This document shows, in pieces, positions 5,306 through 36,517 of a DNA stretch of 64,000 nt. A program made the position numbers and the translations under genes. Below the pieces are notes generated by a model. That model did no database searches. It saw nothing but the letters and a program-made list of their open reading frames with translations, and was not told the origin of the DNA. The stretch lies in the NCBI GenBank assembly GCA_010093995.1, contig ML992507.1, forward strand, positions 1,113,868-1,177,867, given 5' to 3'. Positions within the stretch are counted from its first letter, which is position 1. Every line of letters starts with the position of its first letter. The DNA is from Elsinoe ampelina (lineage: Eukaryota).

Positions 5306-5450
5306 AACTCTACTCTAACCTACCCCTTAGCTTAGCTAACTCTAACTCTACTTACTCTAGCGGGGGTTAGCTAAGCCTAGGGGTAGGTTAGAGTAGGGGT
5401 AGGTTACCTAGAGAAAATCCTAACTCTACTCTACTCTATAACTACTCTAC
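5306..5450. repeat. Hairpin and cluster of ACTCT(A) short repeats, probably a transposon subterminal region
   Basis: ctactctaacctaccccttagcttagctaac (~5310-5340) pairs with gttagctaagcctaggggtaggttagagtag (~5366-5396). Confidence 0.5.
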
Positions 5451-11879: not shown

Positions 11880-12262
11880 GCTATCTCTTCTATTACTACT
11901 TAATTCTTTACCTCTACTAATATACTTAATAAAAGTATAAAAAAGAGTAGTATTCTTACGCTACTAGCGCTCTATTTACTCCTCTAGCTAGTTAATCGAC
12001 AAGCGTAGGTCGCTAAGTTAAGATATGCTACTAGCGTTAAGTAAAGTAGTTTACTTATCGAGATAGGTAATAAGACTACGTTTTATATTAATAGCGTCTT
12101 TACGTTATTCTCTATAGTAGTAAATATTATAACTCTAGCTTCTACTTCTCGCCTTACTTGCTAAGCTATTGTTTACTTAGCTAGTACTACTAGCTATAGC
12201 AATAGTAGTAGTAGCGGTAGTAGAGAAAGGCCTAGCCTTACTACTAGTATATAGCGCCTTAC
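11880..12262 (-). pseudogene. 3' part of Harbinger A ORF2 (accessory protein); bounds approximate
   Basis: Ala/Thr/Ser-rich frame resembling 39040-39420; joins in frame with 36518+ when the nested element and one TA are removed. Confidence 0.65.
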
Positions 12263-15200
12263 TACGTTACGAAATCCCTAACGCTAGGGAGCTATATTAG
12301 ACTACTTCTAAGCAACTAACTTAGTTTAACTTAGTTTAATATAATTCTCTAGTTACCCCTAGGTCCTACTTAGAAGTAATATAGTTTTTCCCTATAGAAA
12401 TCTAAAAACCTCTAATGCGTAGTAAATAGAGACGGCCTAATAGTAGATAGCGTACTACGTGTATCTCTAATCTTAGTTTAAGCATTTCTTAGTTTACGAA
12501 GTAATTAGTTTATATCTACTCTATAAGCTTAATAATATTAATTATAGAAACATTCTATTACGTAGCTTACCTTGTAGTATATATTATATATATCTATATA
12601 TTATATAGACCTTGTAATTTGTCTACTACGTCTAGAAAATTATATAAGGTCGCTAGAATATATATATTACTTTATGTTCTACTTAACGCTACTCTTAATA
12701 ACGATATATATACTATCTTCTTATAATTCTATATCCTTATCTCTTAGTTCTATAAAAGTATCTCTATCTAGTAGATATCTATTCTCCTTAATGTCTAAGA
12801 TACTACTACTATACTTTAGGCTAATTCGGTACTATAAGACTAGTTTACGTAGTAGGCCTCTAAACTTCTTATATACAAAGGATAAAAAGTTTATCTATAT
12901 CTATATACCTAAGAAATTCTTCTACTATGCCTCGACTACTAGTAAATCGCTATTAAGTTGTCTATCTTAGGATAGTATAGCATATATATAATTAAGTAGC
13001 CCGGGTAAATATCGCTATTAAGTCTATTAATCCTCGTATATACTAACTATAACCTAACTTAGTTTAGTAGTAGTTAAAGTTATAACGAGGTTACTATTTA
13101 TATTAGGTATCTATACCAGCTATACTTCTATCGTAGAAGTTACTATAGAGCAATTTAGTACTTCGCTCCTATATATAAACTAAGTAGTACCTTAATATAC
13201 TATAATAGAGTATTTAGCCTTAATTAGACACTCTTCTTAATCTATTAGTATTAAACTTAAGAAGCTAATAGAAGAATTAAGCTTACCTCTTAAAAGGTAC
13301 TTAGTAGAAGCATTTCGTACCGGTGCTATATAATAGCTATTACCCTCGCTATTAGGCCTATTATTATATACCTAACTTCTCTATAAGTTAGTTCGAAGTT
13401 AGGTAGGCTAAACTAAAACGAGAAGGTATATATATACCTTTCCCTTATATCCTCTCTATCTAATAGTTTCTCTATAGTATTAGCGTAAAGAGATATATTT
13501 AACACTACTACTATAATAGTAAGTCTATTTCTCTTAATACACTTAGCAAAGCTAAGTTTTAGCTAACGAAGGATAAGAACCTATCTCGGGCTAATCTACG
13601 CTAGAAAGTTATTTTAAATACTTAGTCGGACATAATTAAGTTCTAAAGGTTCTATATATTTAAATACTAGTATTCTCTTAGGTAAGTAGAACTTAACTCT
13701 ATTTACTTGCTTAACTAAGAGTATATAAATCATTACTAGGAGAAAGGAAATAAGAAAGAGTATTAGTTTATTAAAGTAATAGCAAGTACTAGCTATTATA
13801 GCTAAGCCTATATATCTAATAAAGGCTACTCGGAAGGCTTTATATATTAAAGAACTCCTAAAGCATTTACGCTACTATATATAAGTAATTAATTAATAAG
13901 TATATCTAGTATATACTAAATCGCTATTCTTATATTAGTACTTTCTTTCCTCTAGTAGCCTATATATCTAATTTAGTAGCTTACTATTCTCTAGCCTCTT
14001 AGCTAGCTATTCGTAGTAGAGTATCTCGCTTACTATTTATATAATGTTATTATAACTATAGTAGAGCGTCTCTTAGAGCTACACGTATATTAATAAGTAA
14101 TTAGCTTTAGCTATGTAACTTACCTTACTAGCTATAACTATAGAAGGGTATTTACCTATAGTTCTCTATAGATAAAGTACTAGTAGCTAGTTACGGACTA
14201 AGCGCTAGTACTATATAATTCGTAGAAGTAGCTATTAATTGTCTAATATTAGTAATATTATATTATAATCTACTCCGATAGCTATACTTATATATAGATT
14301 ATTATATACTATCTCGAAAATGTTAAGATACTAGTTTAGTACATTCTATTACCTCTACTTTACTATCTTAACTAGTATAGAGGTTAACGTTAGGCTATTC
14401 TTGTTAGGTTATAGCTCCCTTAAACTCGGATTAAGAGTAGTAATGTCTAATTTATACCTTCTTCTTTGTCTTTAATATTATATTTATAGCCTATATAGTT
14501 AGCTTAGTCTCTCTTAATACTAAAGCCTTACTCTACTTTATCCTAGTTAAAATAACTTAAATTATTATCTTTAGAATACTTATCGGTCTTATAGTCTAAG
14601 CTATATAGGCGCTAACATGCCTAAGACATCTTAGTTTATAATAGTTCTAATAAAGAGATATATAGGTATAAGAGAGTTAGCAAGGTAAGCCGGAATAATA
14701 TATACTATAAGGGGGATAGATAGTTATCTTATATATGTTATAGTAACTTAGCGTTAGTTTAAGTTAGATAATAGCTTAGTTAGGTGTTTAAAGTATATAA
14801 CTTTCTTCTAATTAGAATTAGTTATATCTACCTATACTCTAAAGTAATCTTAACTAGTAAGGGTATTAAATTAGATTTATAGCTAGGTCTAACTCGCGGA
14901 GTGCTAATTACTAGAAGCTAAACTAAAAAAGAAAGCTACTTAAACTTACTTAGACTAAATACTTAAACTAAATATAGTATTTGTTATTAAGTTAAGTAAT
15001 AATTAGAGTAGAAATACATAGAGAGAAATTATAGATTAAACTTAGACTAAGTAATTATATACTAATTTAAAAGACTATAGGAACTAGCTATTATATATAT
15101 AGACAGGTAGTATAATTTATATAGTAGCTCCCTTATTAATTACATTAGTAGTTCCCTCTTTACTAAGTAGTATATCTTCTAAGTGCTAAAAGCATTAATT

Positions 15201-17073
15201 ACTTACTATCTCGCTATCTAGGGTGTTCGAATAAGATATGCTAGATAGAGTAGCTTATCTTCTACTAATTATGTTATAATAGAGAGCAGGCGTTAATTAG
15301 CTATTAGTAACTATATATAGTAATAGTAGAGTAGCACTATTAGTATAGCGTCGTATACTCTTGTTTAATCCGAATAAGCCTCTTAATACTCTACTAGTAA
15401 GGTCTATAGAGGCGACGCTAAACGCGTAAAAAGCTTTACTAATATACTTCCTAAGTATATTATTCTCTTACTCTAAGTATATTATTCTCTTACTAGAGTT
15501 GTCTAATTAACCTTACGTTCTTCTCTACTATTAATTACAATTAGCCTACTTTCTACTAAACAAGTATAATGTCTTTCTCTAGGAGTTACTATCTATTAAG
15601 CTATTTAGGCTACTAGGTCCTATGTTGCTTTTGCTAGCTACTAACGTAATTATACTCTTCTTCGTGTATATATAGTAGAGAGCTTCTAATTTAAGCCTCT
15701 AGCTAGTTAGGGAGACTGTTAGAAGACTATGCTTTAACACCTAAATAGATAAGAGAAGCCTATATACTTAATCCTATAGTCTAGATATTAGCCGCTAGAG
15801 AAACAAGGTTAGTATAATTAATATCTATACTTAAGAGCCTAGCCGAAAGATACTAATAGACTCGATAGATTAATAGTAGAAGAATAGATAAGTAATTCTA
15901 AAGGGCGATTTAGTTAAAAGGTAAGGAAGGATAAAGCGTAGTAAACGAACTAAAACTCTAAGGTTTAGTAGTAGGTATAGCTTAGTATAGATTACCCTAC
16001 TACTTTTTAGTTCGACTTAGTCTACTACTAGACTATTCTTCTTTATGCTTGCTTTAGCTAGATACTTTTCTTAATCTTGTTACCTTATTAGGATATAAAG
16101 AAGTAAACTATATAATATCTTAGATAAGATAATAGCCTTAAACTAGATAGTATTCTCTATTATAGCGAAATACGGCGTTCTATTATTCTTCTAACCTATA
16201 ACATCGCTTTGCTTATTATATATATAGTAGTCCGTTATAATTAATATTACTCTTAGCTAATTAAACTTAATATTTATATTCTCCTTAGATATAGTAGTTA
16301 TAGCTTTATAACATACAAGTAAAAGATCTTTAATTAAGTAGATAGGACGTATCTCTCTATCCTTATAAACTACTAATAGTATATTATCTAGTTAATTAGA
16401 GAGTAAAGGCACTTATAATTATAATTAGCAATCTAAGGATTTGTTCGAGGTAAGTATATTAGTACTATTCTACGCTCCTCTAGGCTTATATAATCTTAAG
16501 TATAACTATACCTACTAACGTCTAAAATTAGTACTTATCTTATAGACGAGAGTATAGAAGGTAGCTTAACTATCGCTACTCTCTAAGAGCTCTATTATAC
16601 GCCGAAACGTGCACTGAATATTATTACTATCTAGTACTACTAGAAGTACCTTCTTCTCTAACCTTCTCCTATTAGAAATTAATCTAAATATTCTTCTAAC
16701 TATGCCTTTACCTATTATAATATTCTCTAAGAGACTATATAAGTCTCTATAGCCTTTATCGTTAAGGGCGAGAGCTTACTTAATAGCTTTAATTAAGCAT
16801 ATTACTAGTTAATAAGAAGTAGATATAGGTATAGCTACGGAGAAGAGGAGAGAAAGAGAAGAGAAAGTAAAGGTAGAAGAGTAGTAGTATAGATAGCAAT
16901 TCGGTGTAAGTATTACTTATAATAGATAAGCCTTAGATCTTAGTTTACTTATAAGAGAGGCATACTAGAATTATACTTAGTTATAATTAGTTAGCCTAAA
17001 CTAACACTTATAGAACTATAAAGTTTAACGCGCTAAACTTTATCTCCTCTTAGTTTTGTTATATGTTTATTAT

Positions 17074-17874
17074 ATAGCGATATAACTATATTATAAATAC
17101 GATTCGTAATAACGCCTTAGTTTATACTCTCTACTTATACTAACCTAAACGTAGGCGTTAGCGTCCCTAGTATAACCTTTTCTCTCCTTTCTATTCGACC
17201 TTAATAATAGCTAGCTATCTATTATAGTAGATTCCTATGCCTAGTATACTACAATTATTAATTATTATATATACTATAGCGACTTTAATATTTACTTCTA
17301 CCTTACTGTCGCTACTACTTTTAATAGTATTCTCTATACTAGCTATGTTATGTTTATAGAATTAACTACTACTAGTACCTAGTAGTTACACCGGAGTAAA
17401 TCTATTATAGTATACCTCTCTATCTTGCCTACTACGCTGCTATAGGCTTAAGGGTATATAAGGAAACTCCGACACCTCTTTTTCTCTCTCTACTACCGCT
17501 GCCCTCTATAGCTTCCTTTATACTAGCTATGTATCATTAGTAGAATTAGCTACTATCTTTACCTAGTAGCTACAACTAAGTAAATCTATTACGGAGTATC
17601 TCTCGATCTTATAGATAGTACTACTAGGGGTTCTAGCGTATATAAAGAGAGTAGAGGAGCTAGCGTCTACTAGGAATTACCTGCCTTATAGTATAAGAAT
17701 GTTAAGGGGAGAATTATAGAGAAATAACTAGTATAATAAAGAGGAAGAGATAGAGGCATATCGTAGGTAAAGATATGTCTACTACCTCCTACTAGATAGT
17801 AGCTTACTATAGAGAGTATTATAGGCGAAGCTATATTAGTAGTATTCTCTTTTATAATTGCTTTTATAGTAGAG
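17074..17874 (+). repeat. ~800-bp direct repeat, copy 1 (copy 2 at 24247-25046)
   Basis: Colinear alignment by eye; differences mostly C/T and G/A transitions. Confidence 0.92.
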
Positions 17875-20800
17875 TTTTATTATTAGTAGCGCTTTATTAT
17901 AACTTTCTCGCGTTAGCGATATACTTCTTTCTATATAGATTATATACCTATCGCTTTAATCTCTCTCCTCTAACTAGTAAATAAAATCTCCTTATCTAAT
18001 ATATATAAGTATACTATATATCTTTCTTTATTCCTTATTATTTGTCTTATCTCCTATCTACTATAAAGATATTAAGGTTATTGCTTTATATAATAATACT
18101 CTTTATTAAATAGTCCGCTAGCTATTTAAAGTATATATAACTTTATATATAGTACTAATATATAAGTATTTAGTATAGTTAATTACTTCGATACTAATTT
18201 TCTATAATAATTAGTACTTATAATATCCTCTAATAGCTATGTTTTGTTTGCTTATCTAATTTACGCCCTATAATATTTATTAGTAGTAAACTAACTTATT
18301 TACTTTTAGTTCTAGTATCGACCTAATATTAGTAATTATTATATGTTACTATTAGCACGTACGAAATATAGACTTAGTTAACCTAGTTCACTTTTAGGTT
18401 AAGGCTTAAACTAAATCTTAGTTATAAGTATACTACTTACTTCGGTATACTATCTTAAATATAAATTTTATTATATTTAAGAAGTTACTACCTACTTTCT
18501 ATATAGTATTTTAATATTATACTAGGTAGTAGGTATTTATAATTACTAGTATTTACTCTATAGTACTTAACTTACTACGCTTAGTTCCTAGCTATATAAT
18601 CTTAACCCCTCTAACCTTACCTACCTTATATAACGCCTTTACTAGTAGATATTCTTACACTTATTAAATATATATAATAGTACTATGCTACTAAAGATAA
18701 AGAAGCTAAAGGTCGCTACTAAACCTATAGAAAAGATTCTACTTAACGACCTTACGCTAGCTCTTATTAAGAATATACTTCGCAATAATAATATTAGTAA
18801 GAAATCTATCTAATTCTTCTTTAATTAGAATAACTAGTAATACTCTACTACATTTATAAGGATAAAGGAAATAATCTTAAAAGTCTTTATAGAATCTAAT
18901 ATCAAAATTAAGAAACAAGATAGAAGCAAGTTATATAATTCTAAGGTACGTAAAGCATATCTTAAAATTAAAACTAGGCTACTAAATAGTACGCCTAACG
19001 ATTTTTAGCTCTTTATTAACTAACTAGATTAGAAAGATCTAGACTAGTTTAAGAAGAACTTATAGACTATAGTTAATATTAACAAGATAAAAGCTATATA
19101 GTAATTATTCTAAAATACTATATAATTAATAAAGGCAAATCTCCTATTAGTTAAAAGGGAAAGAACAACGTCGCTAGGTAAAGAAGGCACCTAGAGTCTA
19201 TATCCTTTAGCTATCTTGTCTATATAGATACTAATACTCTCCTAAGTAAGAACACTATCCTTAGAGAGATATATAACTTATATAAAGATAGGTAATAAGA
19301 GATTAGATTTATATATATAGCCTTATTATAGAATATTTAGCTTTAACTAGGGGCTAGTGTCTAATTGTATCTAGATTAACATTAAATTCGCTACGATCTA
19401 GATTATAGAGGTTATTAAAGTAGATACTATTCCGTATCTAACATTAAGAAAGAATATCTACGTCTACGACTTAAGAAAGTCTAGTGCCGGTAAGGACAAG
19501 AATTGTTATATTAATTACTACATTAGTAAGCTTAGGTAGATCCTTAACATTAGAGGTAATTACCTCTAACTCTACTAGCTCGACACGTATAACTCTATAT
19601 AAGTCTTTACTATTAAAGACTCTTTCGATCTAGACGCTACTATTACTAAGTATATTATAACTCTTATCCCTAGTACCTATAAGATCTTTCTCTATCTTAC
19701 TTCTTTTATAGTATCTATTAAAGATCTTCCTAACTTTATATAAAGTAAGTTTACTTCTTCCTTATTTATCTATATATACTAATACTTATAGACAACTCTT
19801 ATTAATATTATAGTAGCTAGTAACTACTTCCTATAGCCGAGGCTACTATAGAAGAGAACTTAGAAGTGTTTCTTACTCTTAAGAAGCTTTACTTTATAAA
19901 TATTAATACTAATAAGAAGCGTAAAGAAGATTAGTAGAAAAAGAATATTATAATATAGAACGTTTAATATCTATAATAGCGACTAAACTACTAAAGGTAA
20001 GAGTAGTAATACTACTATGTTTTATTTACTATTATGTTATTTATAAAACTATTTAGTTCTTAACTAATAAAGTTTTATTTAGCTTGTTCTACCCCTAAGA
20101 GGCTATAGCTCCTATAAATCCTATAATTTCTATTATTGTTATTAGAAGTAAACTTACTTAATAGTTCTATAACTATAGCTAGACAGATTCTAACTAACTT
20201 AGTAACTTAGTTCGGGGTATAGTCTTACTTTATATAGTTTTAGAAGAATATAGCTCCTTCTCTCCTACTAGAAGAATATAGCCTATTTAGACTATAGTAT
20301 ATATCGCCGAGGCACTATCTATGTTTCTACTGCTTTAATAGCTTAAAGAATATTATATAAGCTACTATATACCTAAGGCCGGCTATCTATCTAGATAAAT
20401 ATAATCTCTCGGAGCTCTCTAATACCTCTCCTAAGTTCTACTTTATTACTAGTAACTTCCTATAGCCCACCTAGCACACTATAACATATTAGAGTAAAGA
20501 GAGTAAATCTAAGAAGATAATAACTTACTTCTACTAATATAAGATTAATATTAGTATTAAAAAAGTAATATGTTCTTAATATTATTAATAATAGAAACAA
20601 AGTAATACTACTATAGATATAATAGACTAGGGCGTTTAATAATAAATAAAACAAGTTAGCGAAATAGGATCTTGTCCCCTATTATAGTAGAAGTAATAGT
20701 ACAAGTTTTAGTTCTATACCGAACTTAGAGTTAACTAAATTAAATAAGAATAGTATAGTACTATAAAGGAGCGCGTAGGTATTACTACTAATATAGTTAT

Positions 20801-20949
20801 TAGGCTTTACTCTTGTATACTAGTAAGGTTTATATATAGTATACTTAGAAGTTAATAAAGAATTCCCGCTAACTATTATTAGTTCTAGCTACTACCTTCT
20901 AATAAATAGTAAAGATGCTTTAGGTTAGGTTATACCTCTTAACTAAGTA

Positions 20950-22600
20950 CAAACTTAAGTTAGTTTAGTTAGCCTAAAACTAGAAATAAACTTATTTTAT
21001 ATTAGGGCGAATAAGTCCTTTAAGGGAATACTATAACGCCTAGCTATCTTATACTTCTCCTCGTTAGGCAATTACTACTTAGTATTAGTATAGCTCTACT
21101 AACTATATATATAGGTTTAGTATTAAGCTTAATATTTAATATAAGGTTAATTATACTAAGAGAAAAAGATTAGATATCTACTACTTAATAAAGGCAGCTT
21201 CGATATAGTAGAGCTAGTCTCTATCTATAGGCAGTAAAGACGTACCTATTATAAAGAATAAGAGAGAATAAACTAGATATAATTTAACTTAATATTACTA
21301 TATAATATAACAAGAGGTAGCTCTCTACCTATACGAAGGTAATATAAGAATAGTTAAAGCCTATCGTAGCCTCCTTTTCGTAAATATAATAGTTACTTCT
21401 TGTTTCTAGTTCGAAATCTTCGTATTAGTCCCTATATAGATAGCTAGACTTCTATTTATTCCTCTTAATATATATCTTAACCTAATTATAAAACATCTAG
21501 TAGCTATACTTACTTTTATGTCTTATTAGGTTTGAGATATTTCTAACTAGAACTTTAAAGTTTTAATCGAGGATAGATATCTTATTTCTTTAGTAGTACT
21601 ATATATATAAATCGCTTCGTATATAGGGGAGTATACCTTAACTACAATTATAGAGACGCTATATAGGAGAGAGTAGTATAGAATAATATTTATATTTAAT
21701 AAGCAAAAGAAACCTAGAGATAATTATACTAGATATTGTTATAAGCTTACTTTATTTACTCCGCTACCTTGCTAGTATAGAAAGAGTAATAATATTAACT
21801 AATATTATAGTAGAGGCTATAGACACTCCTTAGACTTTATATCTCGAGCCGAAGTAGTAGACAAGTATATAGCTAGTACTACGCTAGATTAGAAATATAG
21901 AGCCTTTATGTTATTATTCCTAAGATTATAGAATAGAAAGCCTATAGTTAGAAGACTAAGAGGCAGTAAGGGATTATTTATACGTATAACTCTATAGCGC
22001 TAGTAGTAGCTATAGTAGTTAGTTTAACTTAGTTAGTCTAGTTCGGTTATTACTAACAAGAGAGCTATATCTATAATAACTTAAGAGAATCCCGAATAGC
22101 CGAGCTATTAGGATTAGTAAGGGCACTAAAGTTATTATTATTAATTATAGAGAGAAGTCTATAGTAAGCTACGTAAGTATTATCGAGGTAGCTATATTAA
22201 AGTAAACTTACTTCGAGAAGGCTACGCTAGTTAGTTCGTAACTAGAAATAGTATATAGTTCTATAACAAGTAGAGTACTAGTGCTTCTACCTTAATAGTG
22301 TAACTTTGCTTAATACAAAGTTAGTATATAGATCTAATTATTATAGTAGGCTTCCGATAGTGCCTTAGAGAATATAATATTCGCTAGTATAGATATAATA
22401 ATAGCGTTTATGCTTAAGCTAACTATACTATTCTATTAGCTAAAGAAGTAGGTTAACTATAGCTATAATACACTAATAATAATATAGAAAGTTATATAAG
22501 ATAATATAGCAAAGTAGACAAACTAAAAGCGTAGTTATTTAAACTAATAAAGGAGTAATAGCAAATTATTAGTTTATTCTTATTAAGACCGGTTAAGAGA
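20950..22600 (+). pseudogene. Second, more diverged SNF2-like helicase relic (C-terminal part clearest)
   Basis: 21880-22460 aligns with 29690-30270 at a ~7810 offset (e.g. gcctttatgttattattcctaagattat vs tcctttatagtattatttctaagattat; shared GTTAGT...CTAAY.AG intron-like segment). Confidence 0.6.
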
Positions 22601-23094
22601 ACACTTACAATTTTCACCTAAAAAGTACTAGTTTTAGTTTAGTAAACTAATCGACTACCTCTAATAGATTAACTATAAGTATAAACGACCTAATGTTATA
22701 TAGCTAAGGCGTCTTTATATACTACTATTACTATTTTTTCGTAGAGGCTATTTATAACTAACTTATTATAATACTAGCGACAAGTTAAGATATAAGATAG
22801 TAAAAGCTATAAATTATTTACTAGCTAAAATTATTATACCTACGTAGTACTTCCTATTTTACAATTGCTATAAAAGCCTCTACTAAGGACAATAGCGTAA
22901 TAATAGCTAATTAAGTATAGTATTTAACATCGTCCTTAAGTAAGAGATAGCTAACAAACTCTATCGCCTAGATATATTAGAGTAAACTCTATCTTAACAT
23001 GTCTAGTACTATAGCGTAGATACAATTTTAGCTTTAGTCTACCGACGCTATATAATAGCTTAGTCCTATTAGCTCTACTACGAATTATAGTAAA

Positions 23095-23544
23095 TAAGAA
23101 CTAAACTAAGTAACGAGGTAGAAATAATAGCCTATAGCTAGTATAGAGTGTCCTTCCCCCTTTGTCTACTATATAGTATAGTATAGTAGATAATCCTCTT
23201 AGTCTCTTTACTAACCTTAACTCTTAACCTCTAGTATATAGAATAGATAGTAATAGTAATAGTAGGCTTAATAGCGACATACACAAGGAAGAGAAGAGTA
23301 TAGATAAGGTTATAATAGAAGGTATATATAAGAAAGAGTAAGTAATTACAGCAAGTATAACTAGTAGTACGTCTATAGAGTAGAGTACTAGAAGGTTGTT
23401 CTTATCTAGTAGAGCTATATCTAATTATACTACGTTCGAGATAGTAACTAGTATACTAGCTAGTAGCGAGGAGTTAGTAATAGATATAGTTTATTCTTAG
23501 TTTATATTAACTAATCTTATCTAGATCTCCCTAAGTCTATAATA
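23095..23544 (+). repeat. ~450-bp direct repeat, copy 1 (copy 2 at 30904-31353); truncated 5' part of the Plavaka gene
   Basis: Near-identical apart from transitions; both copies end ctagatctccctaagtctataata. Confidence 0.9.
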
Positions 23545-23919
23545 CATCCTTTACTCCGAGCAATTAATAAGATATAGCTTAGCTAAGGACTCTTAGCTTA
23601 GTACTTTAATGTTTAATAAAAGGCAAGCTACTAACTTAGATAGATAATTTTAATTCAAGTTAGATCGTTGTAGTAGAAGCGCCTTTTAGTAGAATACACT
23701 TACTACGGACTACTAGCCCCTATATAATATTCTAATAAATCTACTTCTACCTATGTAAGGGTACTAAAGATATATCTAAGTTACACACGCGAAGGCTATA
23801 GTAGTCTAACTAATAGCAAAATAGTGTTTACTAGTAGGAAGCTTACTCGGCTTAAATTTAGTAGTATAAATTGTTGCTTTACTCTATCTCTAGCATGTTA
23901 TATATAGCAGTAGTAGAGG

Positions 23920-24118
23920 GCAGCCGGCAGGGGACGGCTAGTAGTTTATTACGTCGAACTAATAATTTCTTAGTTCTCTCTCTTAAAGTTTAAAGATAAT
24001 TTAAAATTTCGACCTAACCGTAGCTAGTAGAGGACAGCTAGTAGTTTATTACGTTAAACTAATAATGTCTTAGTCCTCTCTCTCGAAGTTTAAGAATAAC
24101 CTAAAATTTCGACCTAAC
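23920..24118 (+). repeat. 100-bp tandem duplication
   Basis: gctagtagtttattacg...aaaatttcgacctaac occurs at 23937 and 24037. Confidence 0.85.
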
Positions 24119-24246
24119 TAGATTAAGCACTTCTTAGAACTTAATTATATAATGCTATTTAATTATATTCTTCTCTAAAGTTAGGTATTATATGTTTAGA
24201 AACTTGTAATCTTAATAGCATTATAAATGCGTTATAAACTCTATTT

Positions 24247-25046
24247 ATAGCGATATAACTACATTATAGATATAATTTACTATAATACCTTAGTTTACGC
24301 TCTCTACTTATACTAACCTAAATATAAGTATTAGCGTCCCTAGTATAACCTTTTTTCTTCTCTCTATCTAACCTCGATAATAGCTAGCTATCTATTATAG
24401 TAGATCCTCTACCTAGTACACTATAATTATCTATTACTATATATATAATAGCGACTCTAATATTTACTTCTACCTTGCTATTGCTACTACTTCTAATAGC
24501 ATTCTCTACACTAGCTATATTATGTTTATAGGATTAACTACTACTAGTACCTAGTAGTTACGCCGGAGTAAATCTATTATAGTATATCTCTCTATCTTAC
24601 CTACTACGCCGCTATAGACTTAAGGGTGTATAAGGAGACTCCGATACTTCTTTCTCTCTCTCTACTACTACTACCCTCTATAGCTTCCTTTATACTAGCT
24701 ACGTATTATTAGTAGGACTAGCTACTATCTCTACCTAGTAGCTACGACTAAGCGAATCTATCGCGGAGTATCTCCTAATCTTATAAATAGCACTACTAGG
24801 GGTTCTAGCGTATATAAAGAGAGTAGAGAAGCTAGTGTCTACTAGGGATTACCTGCCTTATAGTATAAGAATATTAAAGAGAGAATTATAGAGAAATAAC
24901 TAGTATAACAAAGAGGAAGAGATAGAGAAATATTATAGGCAAAGATATGTCTACTACCTCCTACTAGATAGTAGCTTACTATAGAGAGCGTCGTAGGCGA
25001 AGCTATACTAGTAGTATCCTCTCTTACTATTACCTTTCTAGTAGAG
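24247..25046 (+). repeat. ~800-bp direct repeat, copy 2
   Basis: Matches 17074-17874. Confidence 0.92.
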
Positions 25047-25555
25047 CTAGGTAAGGAATAAAGCATATTTATAATTATGTAGAATATACTATTAATCGCC
25101 TATTCTACGGAATATATAGCCTTTACTCTACTTTACTACTTAATTCTATATATAGCAATTATAAAGTCTAGATAATTAGATAGTAGTATATTACTTTCTT
25201 TGTTTCTTTACTAGTATCTATAAGCTATACTATACACTATATATACTATACTCTTTATTCCGCTATAGGCTACTAACTACCTTCTATTTATGTTCTATTA
25301 CTATTATCCTTCGTATATAAATACTAGTTTCGCTATTAAAATATTGTTTAATTATTTTATATTAACTGCTACTATATTTCTTCTATTTATTAGACTATTA
25401 TTCCTTAAGATCTACCCTAAATACGACAATAGTATCCTTAGTATATATAGTATATAAAATAAAAGGTAACTAAGTACATAGACTATAGTTACTCTTAGTT
25501 TAGTGTCTAAACTAAGTAATTTACTATTATATATATACTATATCTAGTATACTAC

Positions 25556-26018
25556 TGTCACGAACCGTCTAAACATAGTCTACATTAGTAGTCTAAGCTA
25601 AGCTAAGAACGAGGTAGTTCTACTTCTATAGTAGTATAGTACTAAGGTAAGAGTCGGAGAAGGTATGTCTTATAGATAATAAAGTACAATTAGATAGTAT
25701 TATAAAGGCTAGCCTTAGTAATACTAGTGTTTGCTATCTAGACAAGGTTAACTATAGTACTTACATAAGGTAAGGACTGTTCCTATATACTTATGTTCTC
25801 TATCGCGTACTCTATATACTCTATATACTTCGTAGCGAAAGCCGGGAACAGCATAAAGTACATGTCTACTAGTAACCTACGCGCTCTATAGTCTCTAGGG
25901 TAGAGCTGCTAGAGAAGATAGAGAACCGGGTAAACGTCGGGCTAGGTCACGTAATAACCTTAGCGGTTTAATTAGTCCTAACGTCCCTATGCTCTAGCTG
26001 TTCTACTAGTTCGTAACA
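25556..26018. mobile_element. Solo LTR (463 bp) with 5-bp TSD ACTAC
   Basis: TGTCACGAAC...GTTCGTAACA termini; ACTAC at 25551-25555 and 26019-26023; partial second copy at 5-205. Confidence 0.92.
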
Positions 26019-27899
26019 ACTACTACGTGCTTAGTTTAGAGCCTAACCTAAGTTAACTAAATTTAGGTTACTTCTCTCCTTAATTGCTTTAGTTTACCTT
26101 TGTTTATACTCTCTTATATATAAATAAATAACTTATATAGCTCTCTAGTATTTCTTTAACTTCTTTAACCTTTCTTTTAAGCGCTCTTTACTTAAATATC
26201 TCCTCTTTAGTTAGGTTTTAGTTAGGCATATATTATAAAGTATATAGACCTACTATGTTAATAAATTCTCTTCTTAATTCTTCTAAACTTATAAATATAT
26301 AATACCTTTATAGAATCTCTTTTTTAATATCTACTATACTTACTTAACCTATTTACTAGATATTATTCTAAGCTTTATTTATAGCATATACTAAGCTTAT
26401 AGATGTATATAATATATCTAAGAATTAGTCTAATAGCGCTAGTATAGCTACTAATAATATTCCGCTCTATAAAAGATCTTCTATAGAAATTTAAGTATAG
26501 CTCGATAAAAACTTTAAGATTAAGAGATTCTTCCTTAAATTCTTTAACTAGAATAACGACTAGTATACTACTATACGTATAAGAGTATAGAAAGAATATA
26601 AGAATACCTACATAGTTCTAGGACTTAAATATAAGAAACCTTAGAATAGTAATATTAATATAACTATAATTATAAATAACATTAAAACTTCCCTACGATA
26701 CTCTTAGGATAACTATACGAAGATCTTCTTTTAAAGACTATACTATTAAGACTAAGACTAGTTTAAGAGGAATATTAGAAACTATAACAATATATCTAGT
26801 TATAATATTATTAAAGATTTTGTCCTTACTATTAAGGCGTAAGAGCTTAGAAATAAGAAGAATTAGACTAAAGTAGATAAGAAGGCTAATCCTAAGAAGT
26901 ATATTAGAAAGCGCCTCTCCGCTACCTAGTCTAATAGTAGACTCTCTAAAAGATTAAAGACTTCTATACTTAGTAGCGGACTTATAAGTATAAATATTAA
27001 TTACTATACTAGTTAGCCTATACATTAGTAGTAAATACTAGAGGACATGTCTTGTCTAGTCTAGAGTATTATTAATAAAACTATTATTAACTTTATAATT
27101 GTTAAGTAATTAAATATTAGCCTAGGCGTAATTATAAAGAGAGAATGTTTATGTCGTCTATAGGTATTTAGTCTAAGAATTTTAAGGTTATATCTAGGGA
27201 ATTATAATCTAAACGTATATAGCCTTAATAAGATTAGGCTATTCCTAAAGGAGAAGAAGTTAGTTAGTAATAATATTATTCTTGTATAGATAAATTATAT
27301 AGAGCTATATAACATTCTACTTATCTTAGACAACTACGACCTACGTGCTACTATAATTAACTATATTAACTTCCTAGTCGAAGGTAGTAATATAATCTTT
27401 ATCTATCTTATACCTAGTATAGATCTAGTTAAGAAGCTTCCTAAAGAAGTACTTTATAAGTTTAATACTTAGTTTAACTTAGGTGTATACTAATATACTT
27501 AGTTAACTCTCTTTAGTATTATAATAGTTAAAAGCTATTAACTCTAGTCTAGAAGGAAGAGAAAGAGGAACCTCTAGCCTCTCTATCTTTAGCTAAGCAC
27601 CTACTACTACATAAACCTACCTCTAAGAAGTAACCTAGCTCTCTACTACCTAATAAGGATAATACTACTATTAACTATTATTCTACTCGAGTAATAGAAG
27701 ATAAATACTATAAGTAATACTAAGACAGTAATTAGTATCCTTTTATAATTATACCTAGCAAGGAGCAAGTAAGGTACTATATTCCGTTAGTCCCTAAGAC
27801 ACTATCTATACCTATCCTAGCGCTTATAACTTATATATTTAATAAGACTCTTAGTAGCTTAGACTTTGTTAAACTTTATACTATAAACGACAATAACGA

Positions 27900-30400
27900 C
27901 AAGTAAACTAGTAATAATCTAGCTAACTAAAGCTTTATCCCTATAGGCACTAGAATCGATTACTAGTCTAAAGAGTTCTAGAAGAGAGTCTATAACTTTA
28001 TAGGCTTTAAGAAAGATATCTACTTACCGAATACAAGTATATAGTGTTTTAGTTAGAATAAGAAGTATCTAGTCGAGGTAGTATAGATATACTTAGCGCT
28101 TGTTACACTTAAGAAATACCTTAAAGGCTACCTAGTATTTATATTTACATATAAGATAGAATTTAGAAAGACTCTAATAGAACTCTTCTTTCTCTTACTA
28201 ATTTAGAACTTAAATAAAAAGGTTATCTAGGATGCTAATTATACTACTATACCTAAGGATAAGTAGAGTAAGTACTAGAAGATAAAGACACTAGTTAATA
28301 AGCTATAGCTAGATATTGCTTCTATAGATACTATTAGCTAAAATCTAATTATTAGCGGATTAAACGTAATAAAATAGTAAGCGCAGGAGATATAGAAGTT
28401 TATACCTAATACAAAGGTTGTTCTATACTAGGGAAGAATATTCTAAGCTATATAAGAAGATAAGTATAGCAATATATATAATATAGACACTTTAATTTAC
28501 AAAGAGGATCTGCCTATAGGCTACTACTAATAGAAGTCTTAGCTAATAGATAAGTCTAGTAAGCCTATTAACACTATTATAGTCTTATAACTAGTCGATA
28601 TACGTAAGTAACACCCCTAGACCTTATAGATAAATAATTAGTTCTTCTTTACTACTTATAATACTATAATCTACTACTTCCTTAGTAAGAATAATATAAA
28701 TACTAAGGATTAGAACTTTATTCCTAAGAGACAAGAGAGAAAGCTAGGGTTTACGCCTATAAACTAGGCCGCTATTATCTTTAATAAGTTCTATTAGGTC
28801 ACTAGCTAGAAGACGTAGACCTAGTATTATCTAGAAATACTACCGGGGAGGCCTTTTATACTAGACATAAGCGGGATGCTATTTATTAAATACTTAAACG
28901 TAGTAGCGTTCTTAATAGCGGCTATATATAAGGACTTTAGATTAGAAAAGCTTAATATAAATAGAAGTAGAATAGGAGAATTTAATAAGAACTATATCTA
29001 TAAATCTAAGTAGAAGCTAACTAAGGCTAAGAATAATAAATGTTAAGTAACACTAAAGATAACACTAGATAAGACTTAATAAGCTATTACTAACAAGCTT
29101 AACTTCTAAATAGTATTAGACTATACCTTTATAATTAATAAATAGTATAAGGCGAATAACGACTCTAGTAAGTTTAACAAAAAGAGAAGTATATAGTTTA
29201 TAGAAAAGATTATAGTAATAGTTAGTAAATAGAGCACTATCCTTATAAATATTCTTATTAAGATAAATATAGACTATATCTAGAAACCTTTCGATACTAC
29301 TTCTAGTCTACTAGCTATTAGAGTTCTACTATATTCTACCTTTAACCTAGAGATTACTATTAAGAATAAGTATCTTTATAGTCTTATAAATACATAGAAG
29401 AAGATTAAACAGGATATAGATAAGAGTATATAAGAGACAATCGACAGGCAAAAGAATAAATCTAATAAGCCTAAAGTAATATTAGAGACAATCCTTAATA
29501 AGAAGACTAAGGAGCAAATACTAAGCCTAGTTACGCCGCTACTGCTTTTCTCTATGTTTCTTACTCTTATAGATATATTCTAGGACAATCCCGTAGTTGT
29601 AGAAGAGTTTAGTAACTTTACTATTAAGTTTACCTATAAAATTATATATAACTCCTCGGAGATAGCGCTATAGTAGTATATAGACAAGATCTATGCTAGT
29701 TCTTAGATAAAGGTCCTTTATAGTATTATTTCTAAGATTATTAAGTAGAATATCTCTTATTTAAAGGAGCTAAAGAGGTAAGTAATTGTCTATGCATTTA
29801 CACTGTTAGTACTAGCAGTTGCTACAATAGTTAGTTTAGTCTATTTAGTCTATTTAGGTTATTACTAATAAGGGTATAGTATCTAAAATAGCTCGAGAAG
29901 CACCTAGACAGTAAAGCAATTAGAATCGATAAGGATGCTAATATAGTTATTGTCTACTATAGAATAATATTTATACCTGCCTATATAGACATCGTCGACG
30001 TAGCTATATCTAATAATACGTTTATTAAACCTAACAGGCTAGAAGGCTTAAGGATCTTAATTGCCTAGGGTAGAGCTATTAAGACTAGTCTTAATCTAAA
30101 CCGCTTCGATACTATAATCTTACTTAATATAGCATTAGTGTTATAATCTATTCTTTAGTATCTAGCTTAGGTCCGTAGGAACATTAAGTCTTAGAAAGCT
30201 AACTATATAGAGGCGTTTATAATAAAGCTAATAGCTCCGTTCTATAGGCCTCTAGAATAGCTTAATAGTAGATAGAGTAGGCTATTAATAATTTAGAAGG
30301 TTATCTACGAGGAAATAGAGAAGTAGAAGGCAGAGATCTAGAAACTTTAATAAGCTATAGTAAAGAAGAACACAATTGTTATAGATAATAATTAAGATTA
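27900..30400 (+). pseudogene. RIP-inactivated SNF2-family helicase/ATPase-like gene; bounds approximate
   Basis: A single frame carries IFTYKIEFRKT at 28141 (de-RIP ~FAxEMGFGKT, motif I), NLIISGLNVIK**AQEI*KFIPNTKVVLY*G (motif Ia), FFFTTYNT, *AAIIFNKFY*V at 28765 (WAAIIFDEFHQV, DExH) and ILDISGMLF (motif III-like). Confidence 0.75.
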
Positions 30401-30839
30401 CTAGATAATAGTCTAACTATATTACCTAAAAATACAATTCTTTAGTTTAGTAGACTAATTTAGTTCCCTGTATATATTAAACTATCTTTTAGGTTACTTA
30501 ATATAATATAGTATCTAAACGTTTTCTACTTCCTACTATTGCTAAAATTTAGCTAGCTAACTCTAACTACAAATTTAGATCTTAAGCAATAAACATAGAT
30601 ATACTAAGGTAAATTAGTAAATACTCGGCCTATAGGATCTAGTAGAGGCCTTATCTAACATCTGCTATATTGCTAAAGGAGAGAGCTACTAATAAGTAAT
30701 ATAGCGTAAGTCTTACTAGAGTAACGTAGTAATAGACATCTATATAGAGACGACGCTAGTAACAATCCTTGCTTGTTTAATAAGAGAGAGTACTTACTAT
30801 CTAATAAAGGCTAACGAGGTAGTATTACTAGTAATATAT

Positions 30840-33800
30840 AACATAGTTCGCCGATGCTAAATAACCTACTAGTCTACTTTACTCCGCTGCGAATAATAGT
30901 AACTAAGAATTAAACTAAACACTAGAGTAGAAACGAAAGTCTATAGCTAGTAGAGAGTATCCTTTCCCCTTTGCCTACTATATAGTATAGCATAGCGGAT
31001 AATCCTCTTAGTCTCTTTACTAACCTCGACTCTTAACCTCTAGCATATAGAACAGATAGTAATAGTAATAGTAGGCTTAATAGCGACGTATATAAGGAAG
31101 AGGAAAGTATAGACAAGGTTATAATAGAAAGCATATACGAGAAAGAGTAAGTAATTATAGTAAGTACAACTAGTAGTACATCTATAGGGCAGAGTACTAG
31201 GAGGTTATCCTTATCTAGTAGAGCTATATCTAATTATACTACGTTCGAGATAGCTACTAGTATATTAGCTAGTAGCGAAGAGTTAGTTATAGACATAGTT
31301 TATCCTTAGTTTATATTAACTAATCTTGTCTAGATCTCCCTAAGTCTATAATATATATACCGACACTAACGATAAACTAAATTATAATTAGTTAGGTAAG
31401 ACTTAACTAAAGGAAGTCTTTATTAGCGGCATAGACGTAGGTCTTACCTAGTAGCTTATAAAGGAGAAACTTAGTAGAGCTACAATTACGTAATTGCTTA
31501 AAGACCTACGTATATAACCTCTAGTAGAAAGCCTTAGTTAGCAAACTACGAATGAACTAATAGAGAAGATAGAGAATTTAGATACGGGCGGGGGTATTAA
31601 TAGCTAGTAGACCTTAAGCTTTATACTAAACACTAATCGTAGGCCTAAAAGACACACGTTCTAGTATCTAGATATTCTTATAGCGATACGCTTCTTGCTT
31701 AGCTATTACAGTTTTATAGTAGATATAGACTATAGCCTATATAGAGTCTTTATAGAAGCTATCGAGAGTAAGCTACTACAATAAGTATATACTAAAATAG
31801 TAAGCGGCAACTAGTAGTAGAATATATAAAAGCGACTTAGAATACTAGGGGCTACTACTATCCTATTAATTGTCGTAAGTGATTAGACCTAGGTAATAAA
31901 CTATTAAGGAGATCTTATAGCATATACTATCTATCTATTATTAGGTAACCTAAAGGCAAAAGTACGTAATAGTAACTACTAGCTAGGGTAGTTACTAATC
32001 GGCTTACTTTCTATTATTAAAGATAGTAGTAATATCGTTAAGGAGAAGACCTACTATACTTATATAAAGAAAATCTTTAATACTATTATTAATTACTACT
32101 CGAGAGAGAGGAAAATAATCTTCTATATAGATAGAAAGAGGTAGAGGTGCTTCTCTATACTTGCTACTATACCTACGAATTATGCTAAATAGGTTACTAT
32201 AACTAGTGTAAAGTTACTATATTATTATATAAGTTGCCTAATTAGCAAGGATAAAAGAGAGGACCTAGTAGTTACTACGCCGTTCCGAACTTACTACTTT
32301 ATATAGTAATAATAGTGCTTTTAGAGAGAAGCACGTAAGAGTTAGTAGTAGAGCAAGAAGATAGATATAAGCTCTTAGGTTTATATAGTTAGTTACTTTA
32401 CGTAGGATCTTCTATATACTAATATTTACTACGCGATAGTACTAGATATTCTATACTAACTTCTTAAAGGCGTTTTAATACATGTCTTACACTAGACTTA
32501 AAAATTGCTCTAGGATTTAATACCTATATAGAGATTACTACGGTATATAAAGGCTAGAGAGACTATATAGCGAATAGGCTACTAGCGCTTAGTAAAGATT
32601 TAAGAAGATTATACTTAATATTATTAATAAGCGTTTCGATAGTATACTAGTGTTTCCTAGTATTCGATACTTCTTGTACTACTCGGCTATTAAGCAATAG
32701 ATAGGTTAAGAGTAGAAGAGTATTATACGCTAGATACTTCTAGTATTTATACTACTACTTAAGGAGGTTAAGGCGCCTTAAGCTATTAAGTTTATACACG
32801 CACTAGTCGACTTTATATTACTAGTAAACTATAAGACCTATAACAACGATATACTTTAGTATATTAACCTTACGCTCTTTAGAATAAATAAGTATAAAGA
32901 AATCTTCTAGGCCTATTATAGTAACAAAAAAGAAAAGGGCAACTTTAACTTTCTAAAATAGTACTTAATAATACATTTTTTAAAGGCTATCTATAATTTT
33001 AAAGTAGTTACTAGCCTTAATTCTAATTATTTAAAGTATAATTATATATGCCTTATTAAGGATGCCTTTAAACTTATAAACAAGAAGGCTAGATAGAAAG
33101 ACTAGGTTACTACTTATAATACTAAACTAGTAAACATATTAGTAGTATTTAATAACCTCTCGAAGTTAGTTAGGCTATCGGCTACTAAACTAATTAAGAT
33201 CTAGAGTACGCTAGTTAGTATAAGTAATATAGTAAATGTTACTTCTTAGTTTAGCTAGCCTAGCGCTAAGAGGAGAGCTATATAGCGTATAGTAAGAGAA
33301 CTAGAGGCACTTATTAACATACTACCTAGGCTATTACTATAGCAAGTAATAGTGGTATTTGTCCGCGAGGCTTGTTAAGGTATAGCTAATATAGGCTCTA
33401 ACTCGAGAACTAAATACTCTAATTAGTTTAATACTAAACTAGATTCCGACAGACTCGAACTAGATTCTTCCTAGGTAAGCAACCTCCGTATTAAGTTCTA
33501 CTATTCTTTAAAGTATAAGAAACTATCTAACTATAATCCTAATAATCCTAATACGAACGAATAAGACTTTATTTAGTATATAACTAACTAGTAAGAGATA
33601 CGTAGTAATAAGAGGTAAGACTAGCTCTAGGTACAAGAATAGATAACAAATAATAAAGGCACTAACGGAGCATTACCTAATAGCCTATAAGGTAAGTTAC
33701 TAGCTTATATTGTGTTTATAATAACTATAGAGGATAGCTTCTAGTCTAGTAGATTAGGCTAGCGTTAATACCTATACTATATAGGAGCGCTAGTAGATCT

Positions 33801-34134
33801 ATATTAGCCTACTTAGCCGGATAGAGTAGCTAATCGAGAGTATAGTATAACACTAATTAAGCCTTAGACAAATTAACACGCGCGAGCTAGATAGAATACT
33901 CTTACTAGTAGATATATCTACTCTACCTTGTAAATCTACTATAGTATCTACGTCGTGCTAGTAGATAAAATAAGGCTATATAGCTAGATATATATTAATA
34001 ACATAGCCGACTTTAACACATATAACATGCTATAGAATAAGTTATAAGAGTCTAAATAGCTTTACCTAGCTAAGGCTTCGAAACGAGAGAGGTTAAGATT
34101 CCTAGGTATAGTTAGCAAGCGTAGTAAGCATTAA
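30840..34134 (+). pseudogene. RIP-inactivated Plavaka-type transposase; bounds approximate
   Basis: GATTILLIVVSD*T*V...IYLLLGNL (~31850); LATIPTNYAK*V (AxxADYxEQ); LDILY*LLKGV (PDILHQLLKGV, 32442); KRFDSILVFPSIRYF..KQ*IG*E*K (QWTGxExK); NFNFLK*Y (FNFPKxH); KYNYICLIKDAFKLINK (ExxH..KDAF..TN). Confidence 0.85.
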
Positions 34135-36362
34135 TAAAGCTAGAGTACTCCTTTTATAGCTAGAACAATTATCTCTTATATCGATAGTCTAACGCTTAGG
34201 TATACTTAGGTTAACTACTAGACTATATTAGGTAGGCAAGTTATAATAACTTCCGTAGGTATTACTCTAACTAGTTAGTTTACACCTGTATATTATTAGG
34301 TTAGTCCCTGAACTATATAGAGTTTATAGCCTAAGGTGCCTTATATAGTTTTTACGCTAAAGAGTTAGTCTATTCCTTTACTAATTATAATAGCTTAGGA
34401 AACTATAGCGAGGCGTTATAGAAGTTAGTCTTTAAGATACTTAAGACATACCTTAAGTATTTAGTAATAGTAGTAAAAGACTTAGGTTAGTAAGTTGTCT
34501 TTAAGTTAGTTTTACTAACGGAGTTGTCTAAGAGGAAAGTTTATTCTCTATAATAAGTTTACTAATAAGACTCTAATATAGATAATAGTACTTTACTCTA
34601 TTTGCTATTATATTATAGAGATCTACTCGATACTACTAGAGTAGTTACTAAGGACTTATTCCTTTCTATCTAATAAATAAGATCTATAATAACACTAGCT
34701 TAGAAGACCTACTAGGGAACATTCTTATTAATCTCTATATATACTATACACGGGAAACAAGTCGAGGAAGAAGCTGCCCTTTAGTATAGCGAGTAGCCTC
34801 TTCCTTATCTTCTAAAGCCTTCTCTATATCTATGTAGGTTATAAGTATTTCCTTATAAGATTATTAGTATATAATATATATATAACAAATCCTGTCTATA
34901 AGATTATATACTAGATTATCCTACATGCGCTATTACTATAACTACTACTTAGTAGTAGTAATAGTAGAGCGGTAAGATATAGTAGAAAAAAGTGTTATTA
35001 TACCTACCTCCGAGAGAGAAATATCTCTTTTCTCCTCTATATCTTTCTCCTTGCTCTCTGCTATAGTAAGGTATACTATAACTAAAGCTACTACTACTAC
35101 TCCCTCTATAACTACTATTACTCGTATACGGCTATAACTGCGAGTTATTACTAGAAGCTTAGTACACGTCGGGGTAACTTTATCTTTAATATATAGTAAT
35201 AAAGTGCTATAATCTTAACCTAGATACTACCTCTATTACCTCTCCGATGACTACTATAACTAGCGCTAAGAGCTAGTAAGGCAAGAAGCGTACTACCTCT
35301 ACCTTCGCTAGTGTCTATAGCTATACTAGTATTAAGCTTAGTAAGGTAGAGAAGAAGAGTAAGAAGTAGAAGAAGCCTCTTATTATTACTAATTACCTTC
35401 TTACTAATAACCTTATAGATAGGTAGTTAAGGTAGATCTTAAACTTCCTAGAAAGAGTATTTACTTCTCTACTATAACTACCTTCGAGCTGTTATTTAGA
35501 CTACTATATTCTTAGTACTATCTCCGGGGCTACTTAGATAGTATACTAATGTCTATTAGACCTTACTTTTCTAGGTAGTCTTTTATAGCTCTAGAATTAT
35601 CCTTCTAGTAGGTATACTATTCTATATTAGTAGACAAGGGATTAGCTTAGCCTAAACTAAATGTCTATTACATTTCCTATACCTATCTATATTAGTGTTA
35701 ATCTTCTTAGAATAGGCTATAGCCTCGCTACTATAGCTACTATTAACGTAGTGTATCTAGCTTCTATTGTTATTCTCTTTCTACGTTACTAACGACTTCT
35801 AAGTACTAGAATAGGTCTATAGGTATTTATACTTAATATTATAACTATGCTTAGCTATAATAATTAAGTTCTTCTCGGAAAAAGCTTTCTTATATCTATA
35901 AGCCTAAGTTATAAATACCTCTCTATAAGCTTGTTTTATATTATTAATAATATAGGCCGCTAGATAATAGAACGTATAGGCTATAGAGCAATAGAGGTAC
36001 TTTTCGTTAGTATTAACCTTTATTGCTAGCTATATAGTTACGCGAAAGTGCTTGTCTTTAGAGATATCTAACACCTTAATAGATAACTAAGTAGAGATAA
36101 TAAAATAGAGTTAGAATAAGTATATATTAGTTTAGGGTTTTATATTATAAGCTAGAGAATAAGGCGTATAATGTTTACTTTTCTATTATAGCGAAAGCGC
36201 TTCTATACTAAGCTTTAATAATGTAGAGTATATACTTCCTCTCTATCTAGTAGATAAGATCTATAATAACACTAGCTTAGAGAGCTCTCTCCGGAAGATG
36301 CTTATTAATTTCTATATCTATTCTAGTTGCGGCAAGTAGAGCGTTTATCTAATCTAAGGCAC

Positions 36363-36436
36363 GTATAGTATATTTAACTAAAATTAGGTAGGTATAGTGT
36401 ATTTAACTAAATTTAGGTAGGTACGGTACGTTTATA
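36363..36436 (+). repeat. 29-bp tandem subterminal repeat (~2.5 copies)
   Basis: gtatagtRtatttaactaaaWttaggtag twice plus a partial third copy, ~80 bp inside the right TIR. Confidence 0.85.
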
Positions 36437-36517
36437 TCGACCTAACGTAGTTAAACTTAGTTTAATATAGAGAAACCTAATATTCTAACTCTCTATACTT
36501 AGGACTTTCGTAACGTA

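Follow-up and report, generated by a model that had tools for sequence, protein, structure and literature searches.

A probable giant Plavaka-lineage DNA transposon with a Rad54-like helicase, inactivated by repeat-induced point mutation, in Elsinoe ampelina

Background

Is the long AT-rich segment that interrupts a Harbinger-like element of the fungus Elsinoe ampelina one very large transposon, or has it been put together from several insertions? The window analyzed here is a stretch of 64,000 nucleotides (assembly GCA_010093995.1, contig ML992507.1, positions 1,113,868 to 1,177,867 of the forward strand), and all coordinates below refer to it. An initial annotation, made from the letters alone, had proposed a giant element of about 24 kb in which a Plavaka transposase is coupled with a SNF2-like helicase and cargo genes. 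We consider it probable that the segment 12265-36515 is a single DNA transposon with several genes, belonging to the Plavaka lineage (EnSpm/CACTA-related, with a DDE transposase), and that it was inserted at TA in a Harbinger-like element and inactivated by repeat-induced point mutation (RIP).

Two blocks of the window are AT-rich (1-7000 and 10.2-41 kb, GC about 0.26-0.33) and lie next to sequence of normal composition. A GC-normal island of 3 kb at 7000-10200 (GC 0.48, no RIP signature) separates the two blocks. Within the blocks the RIP indices TpA/ApT and (CpA+TpG)/(ApC+GpT) amount to 1.8-2.1 and 0.18-0.35, against normal values of 0.57 and 1.22 in the gene-rich part. The RIP damage assumed initially is thus borne out.

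RIP generates transitions only, and the window was therefore compared with itself after its bases had been collapsed to purines and pyrimidines. Old reading frames were followed in an equally RIP-invariant way, by purine-any base-pyrimidine codon periodicity, which also guided the cropping of frames for Pfam scans. With these two tools the reading frames of the Harbinger-like element, the helicase and the transposase were located, where neither stop density nor profile scanning of long translations had succeeded. No family was found by Pfam in long read-through translations (stops as X, pieces of 2,700-4,100 residues, two plus-strand second-half frames being outside the scan). Stop-free open reading frames (ORFs) of at least 45 amino acids, 86 of 95 of which were scanned, returned noise only (best E 0.019). 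Word-based homologue searches gave nothing useful, and one of them retrieved just its own query.

Ends and target site of the element

The element measures 24,251 bp and lies within a fungal repeat block. On the left, TA is followed from 12265 by CGTTACGAAATCCCTAACG; on the right, CTTAGGACTTTCGTAACG runs to 36515 and is followed by TA (in short form, CGTTACGAAATCCCTAA and TTAGGACTTTCGTAACG). The inverted ends CGTTACGAAA..CCTAA agree at 15 of 17 positions (10 perfect bases and 5 more), and in a repeat search the pair reaches 37 nt at 76%. As the region holds 1139 inverted pairs, this one included, the terminal repeat by itself is unremarkable. When boundary pairs were drawn at random in the AT-rich block, a perfect 10-nt terminal inverted repeat occurred within +-10 bp in 109 of 20000 trials. 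Inverted termini with TA on both sides, as proposed before, are present, and so are subterminal repeats: a 29-bp tandem array on the right and, on the left, an enriched motif of the TTAGTTTAA type (TAAACTAA/TTAGTTTA, 5 occurrences in the left 300 bp compared with 45 in the whole 24.25 kb).

Removal of the segment restores its host. In the purine/pyrimidine self-comparison, 10248-12248 matches 41043-39043, and 36518-37773 matches 39028-37773. The interrupted host copy A would thus be 2017 + 1258 = 3275 bp long, compared with 3270 bp in its sister copy B. Joined by a single TA (CTTACTATTCTTCTCCT), copy A matches copy B (CTTTTTATTCTTCTTCT) free of gaps, and the minus-strand host frame reads through the junction, from ..EKNKEKN into SKALYTSS... 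The proposal that excision with one TA restores both the frame and the 3.27-kb length therefore stands. The top Pfam match of the host frame is DDE_Tnp_4 (E 0.012, 15.6 bits, under the cut-off of 24.8), for which reason we call the host Harbinger-like; so low a score for its DDE domain is also a gauge of how little profile signal outlives RIP here. Copies A (10248-12264 and 36516-37773) and B (37774-41043) stand head to head with no spacer, as a 3.27-kb inverted duplication.

Genes sitting in terminal repeats and target-site duplications of their own had been named initially as the sign of independent nested insertions. No such pair was found around the transposase gene or around the helicase gene.

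Plavaka transposase

The presence of a Plavaka transposase inside the element is well founded, also by the profile search that had been suggested for it. PF18759 was matched in one frame with 55.9 bits (profile positions 3-187) and 63.5 bits (106-322), so that positions 3-322 of 325 are covered, at a cut-off of 26.3; the domain lies at about 31545-32490. An exhaustive phmmer search returned 179 matches with E<=1e-3, three of them at <=1e-30 (best 2.5e-35), and PF18759 is carried by 12 of 12 tested matches. In the opposite direction, all 154 tblastn high-scoring segment pairs from the 150 listed matches land at 31000-34125 on the plus strand.

The pseudogene is collinear with intact proteins over its full length. 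A 905-residue relative (P0014) is covered from residue 1 to 892, its residues 1-335 falling on 31521-32483 and 377-892 on 32602-34122, and residues 24-897 of the transposase of another relative (locus L001, see below) map here as well. The alignment contains a single frame change, between 32525 and 32602: frame 0 is followed up to 32525 and frame 1 from 32602, with 36 + 40 = 76 stops. Mismatches to relatives are largely of RIP type, e.g. IVSGNXXX for MASGDWWW. Two cysteines invariant in relatives, C255 and C258, appear as Y..C, the C-to-Y change being again of RIP type; the H(3-4)H motif could not be placed. With 76 stops in its transposase alone this copy is a fossil, mobile only with an enzyme supplied by another copy.

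The closest named homologues are hypothetical proteins of ascomycetes (Polychaeton citri, Aureobasidium pullulans, Emmonsia crescens and Ciborinia camelliae), and basidiomycete homologues are more distant. Pfam revealed no second transposase family in any scanned frame of the element.

Helicase and ORF-X

When metagenomes were scanned with the aligned closest transposases, five loci, L001-L005, came up. In L004, the strand of the transposase carries, 2 kb upstream of it, an ORF of 1,370 amino acids (L004:3190-7299). This ORF reaches 34.2 bits for Helicase_C (cut-off 23.5) and 23.1 bits for SNF2-rel_dom, just below the cut-off of 24.9, and its closest relatives of solved structure are Rad54 and SsoRad54. 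A homologous helicase is found upstream of the transposase and on the same strand in all three diverged intact loci whose sequence extends 2 kb or more upstream (L001, L003, L004), a count that leaves out L002, which is too short, and L005, which is distant and different. Between these three loci the transposases share only 42-62% identity, and the linkage is therefore conserved across diverged elements.

The L004 helicase also has a counterpart in the window. Its residues 561-883 align to 28000-28923 (plus strand) with a score of 89; shuffles give 32.8 +- 5.0 (maximum 58 in 200), and when 306 six-frame windows of the RIP block were scored, the next unrelated one reached 46. The L003 helicase (L003b) peaks independently at the same place, 69 versus 51. 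Motifs I, Ia, II and III are aligned, most of their changes being C-to-T or G-to-A as expected from RIP: GVGKT became EFRKT, DEFH became NKFY and ISGT became ISGM, and the motif Ia block reads LIISGLNVIKXXAQEIXKFIP. A small helicase hidden Markov model (HMM) gave sub-threshold yet collinear matches (independent E-values 0.12 and 3.0). The extent of the pseudogene beyond the aligned part is extrapolated, and codon periodicity agrees with it.

A second accessory gene, ORF-X, is located in L004 upstream of the helicase on the opposite strand. Its remnant in the window has a local score of 116, the next unrelated one in the 306 windows being 57. ORF-X has no Pfam family and no PDB relative, and its Atlas scores of 0.76-0.81 are at chance level. 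ORF-X (minus), helicase (plus) and transposase (plus) share order and orientation in the window and in L004.

Both genes named initially thus lie between the ends and are linked in three of three relatives, which supports the idea of one multi-gene mobile unit. The label of cargo does not fit: in this transposon lineage the accessory genes for the helicase and ORF-X are conserved and not picked up.

At L005:16428-18824, the distant Plavaka relative L005 (33% identity) is followed by retroelement ORFs (reverse transcriptase, RNase H, dUTPase), with no helicase.

Copies in a related sample

About half of the 31-letter words of the stretch occur in a related sample, represented by two runs (X1 and X2) that come from one sample and are not independent support. 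An exact contig of 193 nt spans the left junction 12264/12265. On 12100-32099, 10,199 (X1) and 14,184 (X2) short contigs were placed at 80% likeness. Their summed depth is 9,088-16,295 (X1) and 7,939-12,561 (X2) in 29 of 30 bins. The bin of a nested miniature inverted-repeat transposable element (MITE) reaches 133,257 and 153,078, about ten times the others. The single-copy junction contig has a depth of 221, and the Harbinger flank at 12145-12171 one of 978-1,253 (X1). From about 12,700 in the first 500 bp of the element, X1 depth falls to about 1,000 in the Harbinger flank; the edge of the repeat therefore coincides with the inverted end. Transitions make up 1,408 of the 1,433 kinds of difference listed for X1.

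These contigs suggest roughly 40-75 copy-equivalents in the related sample for every part of the first 20 kb, and several hundred copies of the MITE. Among the 15 joints listed, out of 18, none lacked unit 1 or unit 2 (the two large internal units described below), and the empty site of the MITE was present. Loose contig ends at 13909/13914 and 30637 were considered as repeat boundaries and rejected, since they are accounted for by CGCG/TATA RIP differences and a 12-nt indel.

Internal units and nested MITE

The features of the locus are collected in Table 1. Because the terminal block S1 follows ORF-X and S2 stops where the transposase starts, we regard a unit as the helicase segment, which is present twice. 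The two units lie in tandem, and their copies of S1 and S2 differ almost solely by transitions. Between their 5-kb middles, transversions amount to about 30%, and nothing in unit 1 could be recognized as a counterpart of the helicase core in unit 2. Unit 1 and the linker (together 7.2 kb) could most likely have arisen by faulty, chimeric gap repair between diverged family members, which we offer as a guess. An origin of the units as long terminal repeat (LTR) or long interspersed (LINE) retroelements was rejected: reverse transcriptase, RNase H and integrase were not found in them, there is no third LTR-like copy, and S1 and S2 are unlike each other. The linker holds a 100-bp tandem repeat at 23932-24118 (1.9 copies, 87%).

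The nested MITE shares GTTACGAA with the ends of the large element. Its own ends are TGT..ACA, and it is flanked by AC rather than TA. Probably it landed inside the element later. We do not regard it as a deletion derivative of the large element, as past the terminal 8-10 nt the best score was 135 and the shuffle maximum 146. Another occurrence of GTTACGAA, at 22235-22242, was tried as the end of a further nested element and discarded, because the alignment to unit 2 is free of indels. The giant size proposed initially holds as the distance between the ends; about 7.6 kb of the 24 kb are the internal second copy of the helicase segment and the nested MITE, so the length is partly secondary.

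Table 1. Features of the element and of its host, in window coordinates
Feature	Position	Strand	Basis
Host Harbinger-like copy A, left part	10248..12264	.	self-comparison; DDE_Tnp_4 E 0.012
Left TA of target-site duplication	12263..12264	.	sister copy B matched with one TA
Left terminal inverted repeat, CGTTACGAAATCCCTAA...	12265..12301	+	end reading, repeat pair, random-boundary trials
Left subterminal TTAGTTTAA-type motifs (12322, 12332, 12474)	12318..12482	.	motif count
ORF-X remnant, homologous to L004:1016-2017(-)	16515..16784	-	phmmer 22.7 bits, independent E-value 1.8e-8
Unit 1: diverged second copy of helicase segment (ends S1a/S2a near-identical, middle very different)	17065..23548	+	self-comparison
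Linker between units, 689 bp	23549..24237	.	self-comparison
Unit 2: S1b, nested MITE, helicase pseudogene, S2b	24238..31357	+	self-comparison
Nested 463-bp miniature element M (MITE), termini TGTCACGAAC..GTTCGTAACA	25556..26018	+	contig joint 25555-26023 = empty site
SNF2/Rad54-like helicase pseudogene (extent extrapolated; aligned 28000-28923 only)	26275..30300	+	alignment of relatives' helicase
Plavaka transposase pseudogene	31350..34125	+	Pfam, phmmer, tblastn
Right subterminal 29-bp tandem repeat, x2.5	36344..36434	.	
Right terminal inverted repeat	36479..36515	-	end reading, repeat pair
Right TA of target-site duplication	36516..36517	.	junction fit
Host Harbinger-like copy A, right part	36518..37773	.	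self-comparison

Comparison with known transposons

The element resembles the Plavaka transposons of Basidiomycota in the same transposase family (PF18759, above cut-off, collinear over the full length) and in carrying an accessory gene. According to one account (PMC12730594), PlavakaA makes 2-bp duplications and has ends TGT..ACA, and PlavakaB makes duplications of 2-3 bp and has ends CATCA..TGATG. A duplication of such length is seen here as TA on both sides, in one insertion. In the notation YGT..ACR the ends of the element are one base off those given there for PlavakaA, and the nested MITE has exactly TGT..ACA. The nearest relatives differ in being ascomycete, with PF18759 scores of 212-255 bits versus 343-415 bits in basidiomycetes. 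The accessory genes differ too, being a SNF2/Rad54-like helicase and ORF-X in an element of 24 kb, compared with TET/JBP in basidiomycete Plavaka.

Giant Plavaka elements of red algae span 17.4-19.1 kb and carry three accessory genes, PAG1-3 (bioRxiv 10.1101/2025.02.11.637652). Like our element they are giant, multi-gene and high-copy, with tandem repeats beside the accessory genes. Their PAG genes are described as coding for DNA methylase/SET and ParB/2OG-oxygenase proteins, none of which appeared in scans of the window or of L001-L004. The sole mention of SNF2 in the same paper is unrelated to the transposon.

Further afield, ToxhAT of wheat-pathogenic Dothideomycetes is likewise bounded by terminal inverted repeats (TIRs), multi-gene, located in RIP-degraded AT-rich islands and hit by nested insertions; it differs in its 14.3 kb, its 74-bp TIRs, the lack of a detected target duplication, a hAT-like gene and a virulence gene (PMC6737239).

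Starships of Pezizomycotina, driven by a tyrosine-recombinase captain, are also large and multi-gene, whereas here a DDE transposase, inverted ends and a 2-bp duplication are found. The initial statement that no captain is recognizable was confirmed in all scanned frames: no Pfam scan of the element returned DUF3435, at a sensitivity that is low on RIP-worn sequence, as the control domain itself reached only 15.6 bits.

EnSpm/CACTA transposons, with CACTA ends and 3-bp duplications, share a related transposase clade, subterminal repeats and the presence of more than one gene with the element, but differ from its 2-bp duplication and its ends CGT..ACG. For fungal EnSpm, CAC..GTG and 3 bp are given in PMC12730594.

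In the literature searched (supplements and subscription journals excluded), Plavaka has been structurally characterized only in basidiomycetes and red algae, with DNA- or chromatin-modifying enzymes as passengers, and no paper coupling Plavaka with an SNF2 helicase was found. The ascomycete lineage has a conserved set of transposase, helicase and ORF-X, with ends flanked by a 2-bp duplication, and may have reached dozens of copies of more than 20 kb before RIP. The case also shows that Starships are not the sole giant multi-gene mobile elements of RIP-prone fungi.

Alternative explanations

Several points weigh against a single Plavaka transposon at 12265-36515. Firstly, the helicase frame of the window itself (27601-30150, plus strand) gave no Pfam family even at E<=10, only noise among PDB sequences and no match in the protein collection. 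The HMM search for SNF2 domains suggested initially thus came out empty in the frame itself, and the SNF2 motifs stand through homology to the helicase of relatives. The C-terminal half of this helicase is unmatched in the window, its best score of 45 being tied with unrelated windows. Secondly, end motifs sought in L001-L005 gave no convincing terminus, and no contig of a relative reaches its own termini; the assignment of ends and gene trio to one set would thus come from the window alone. The ends themselves, CGT..ACG, place the element in neither of the two sublineages, PlavakaA and PlavakaB. Thirdly, contig depth is not a copy number, and both runs stem from one sample. The depth covers 12100-32099, so that the last 4.4 kb, including the transposase, fall outside it, and movement of the whole 24 kb as one piece is judged from this depth and not from a second examined insertion. 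Fourthly, about 30% transversions in the middle of the units are not explained by a simple, recent duplication. Finally, further nested elements may be hidden at 12265-16500 (4.2 kb on the left side) and in the last 2.4 kb on the right.

A first alternative is a composite origin. In this case the ends would belong to an unrelated TA-duplicating transposon (for example a Tc1/mariner-like one or a Harbinger relative), into which the Plavaka genes, the two units and the remaining parts were inserted later and independently of each other, as commonly happens in repeat islands worn by RIP. TA duplications are typical of Tc1/mariner, and the duplication seen here is TA. Moreover, one nested insertion is proven by the empty site of the MITE, the pair of 6.5-7 kb units is puzzling, and the termini are unlike published Plavaka termini. 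Nested elements are reported to have stretched ToxhAT from 14 kb to 20-25 kb (PMC6737239).

Yet no second transposase family appeared in any scanned frame, and this includes the DDE_1/DDE_3-type transposase of Tc1/mariner. The gene trio is ordered as in an intact relative, and the MITE, whose end motif is related, has AC instead of TA at its flanks. Starting in the first 500 bp of the element, the summed depth stays flat across both units. The 2-bp duplication and the YGT..ACR ends are close to those of PlavakaA. We therefore find a composite origin unlikely and keep to a single Plavaka-lineage transposon as the probable one.

A second possibility is that the element is a transposon in origin only and that the 40-75 copy-equivalents were produced by segmental duplication or recombination among AT-rich islands. 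At least 99% likeness was found in 2,005 of the 10,199 placed X1 contigs, which would share the RIP-mutated state, an odd property for copies made before RIP; recombination among RIP-degraded islands has been proposed in related fungi (PMC6737239). However, the fall of depth from about 12,700 to about 1,000 occurs where the inverted end lies, and we regard such spreading as quite improbable. A Starship-like or other recombinase-driven giant element with a captain too degraded to be seen would agree with the size and the multi-gene content, and Pfam power is low as judged from the Harbinger control domain, but no scan gave a tyrosine recombinase family, and a full-length DDE transposase, inverted ends and a 2-bp duplication are present, which makes this explanation hardly credible.

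Possible role of the accessory genes

If the single Plavaka-lineage transposon is accepted, its transposition may be pictured as follows. The transposase would bind the ends, excise the element and paste it elsewhere with a 2-bp staggered cut. The helicase might act as a lineage-specific helper ATPase on DNA or chromatin at the element. Most likely, it would open chromatin for synapsis of the distant ends, or promote template-directed repair of the donor gap and in this way raise the copy number.

We put forward, as a tentative and rather doubtful extension, that an ascomycete Plavaka clade recruited a SNF2/Rad54-like ATPase and ORF-X as standing accessory genes. Such a motor would let a cut-and-paste element of more than 20 kb reach dozens of copies, through chromatin remodelling at the ends or template repair of the donor site. 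If true, DDE transposons would gain a helper function that has so far been described for none of them. Whether a DDE transposon needs its own SNF2-type motor is made testable by the intact relatives (L001, L003 and L004, and the homologues of Polychaeton and Aureobasidium).

Minor observations

Traces of related ends occur also in the other AT-rich block of the window. At positions 5-266 the 5' 260 bp of the MITE recur in RIP-worn form, with TATTATAAAC.. in place of TGTCACGAAC.., and the similarity ends at about 240-266. At 2230-2243, on the minus strand, GGTTACGAAATTGG corresponds to 10 nt of the inverted end of the large element. This site and the MITE-like end at position 5 might bound a non-autonomous relative of 2.2 kb.

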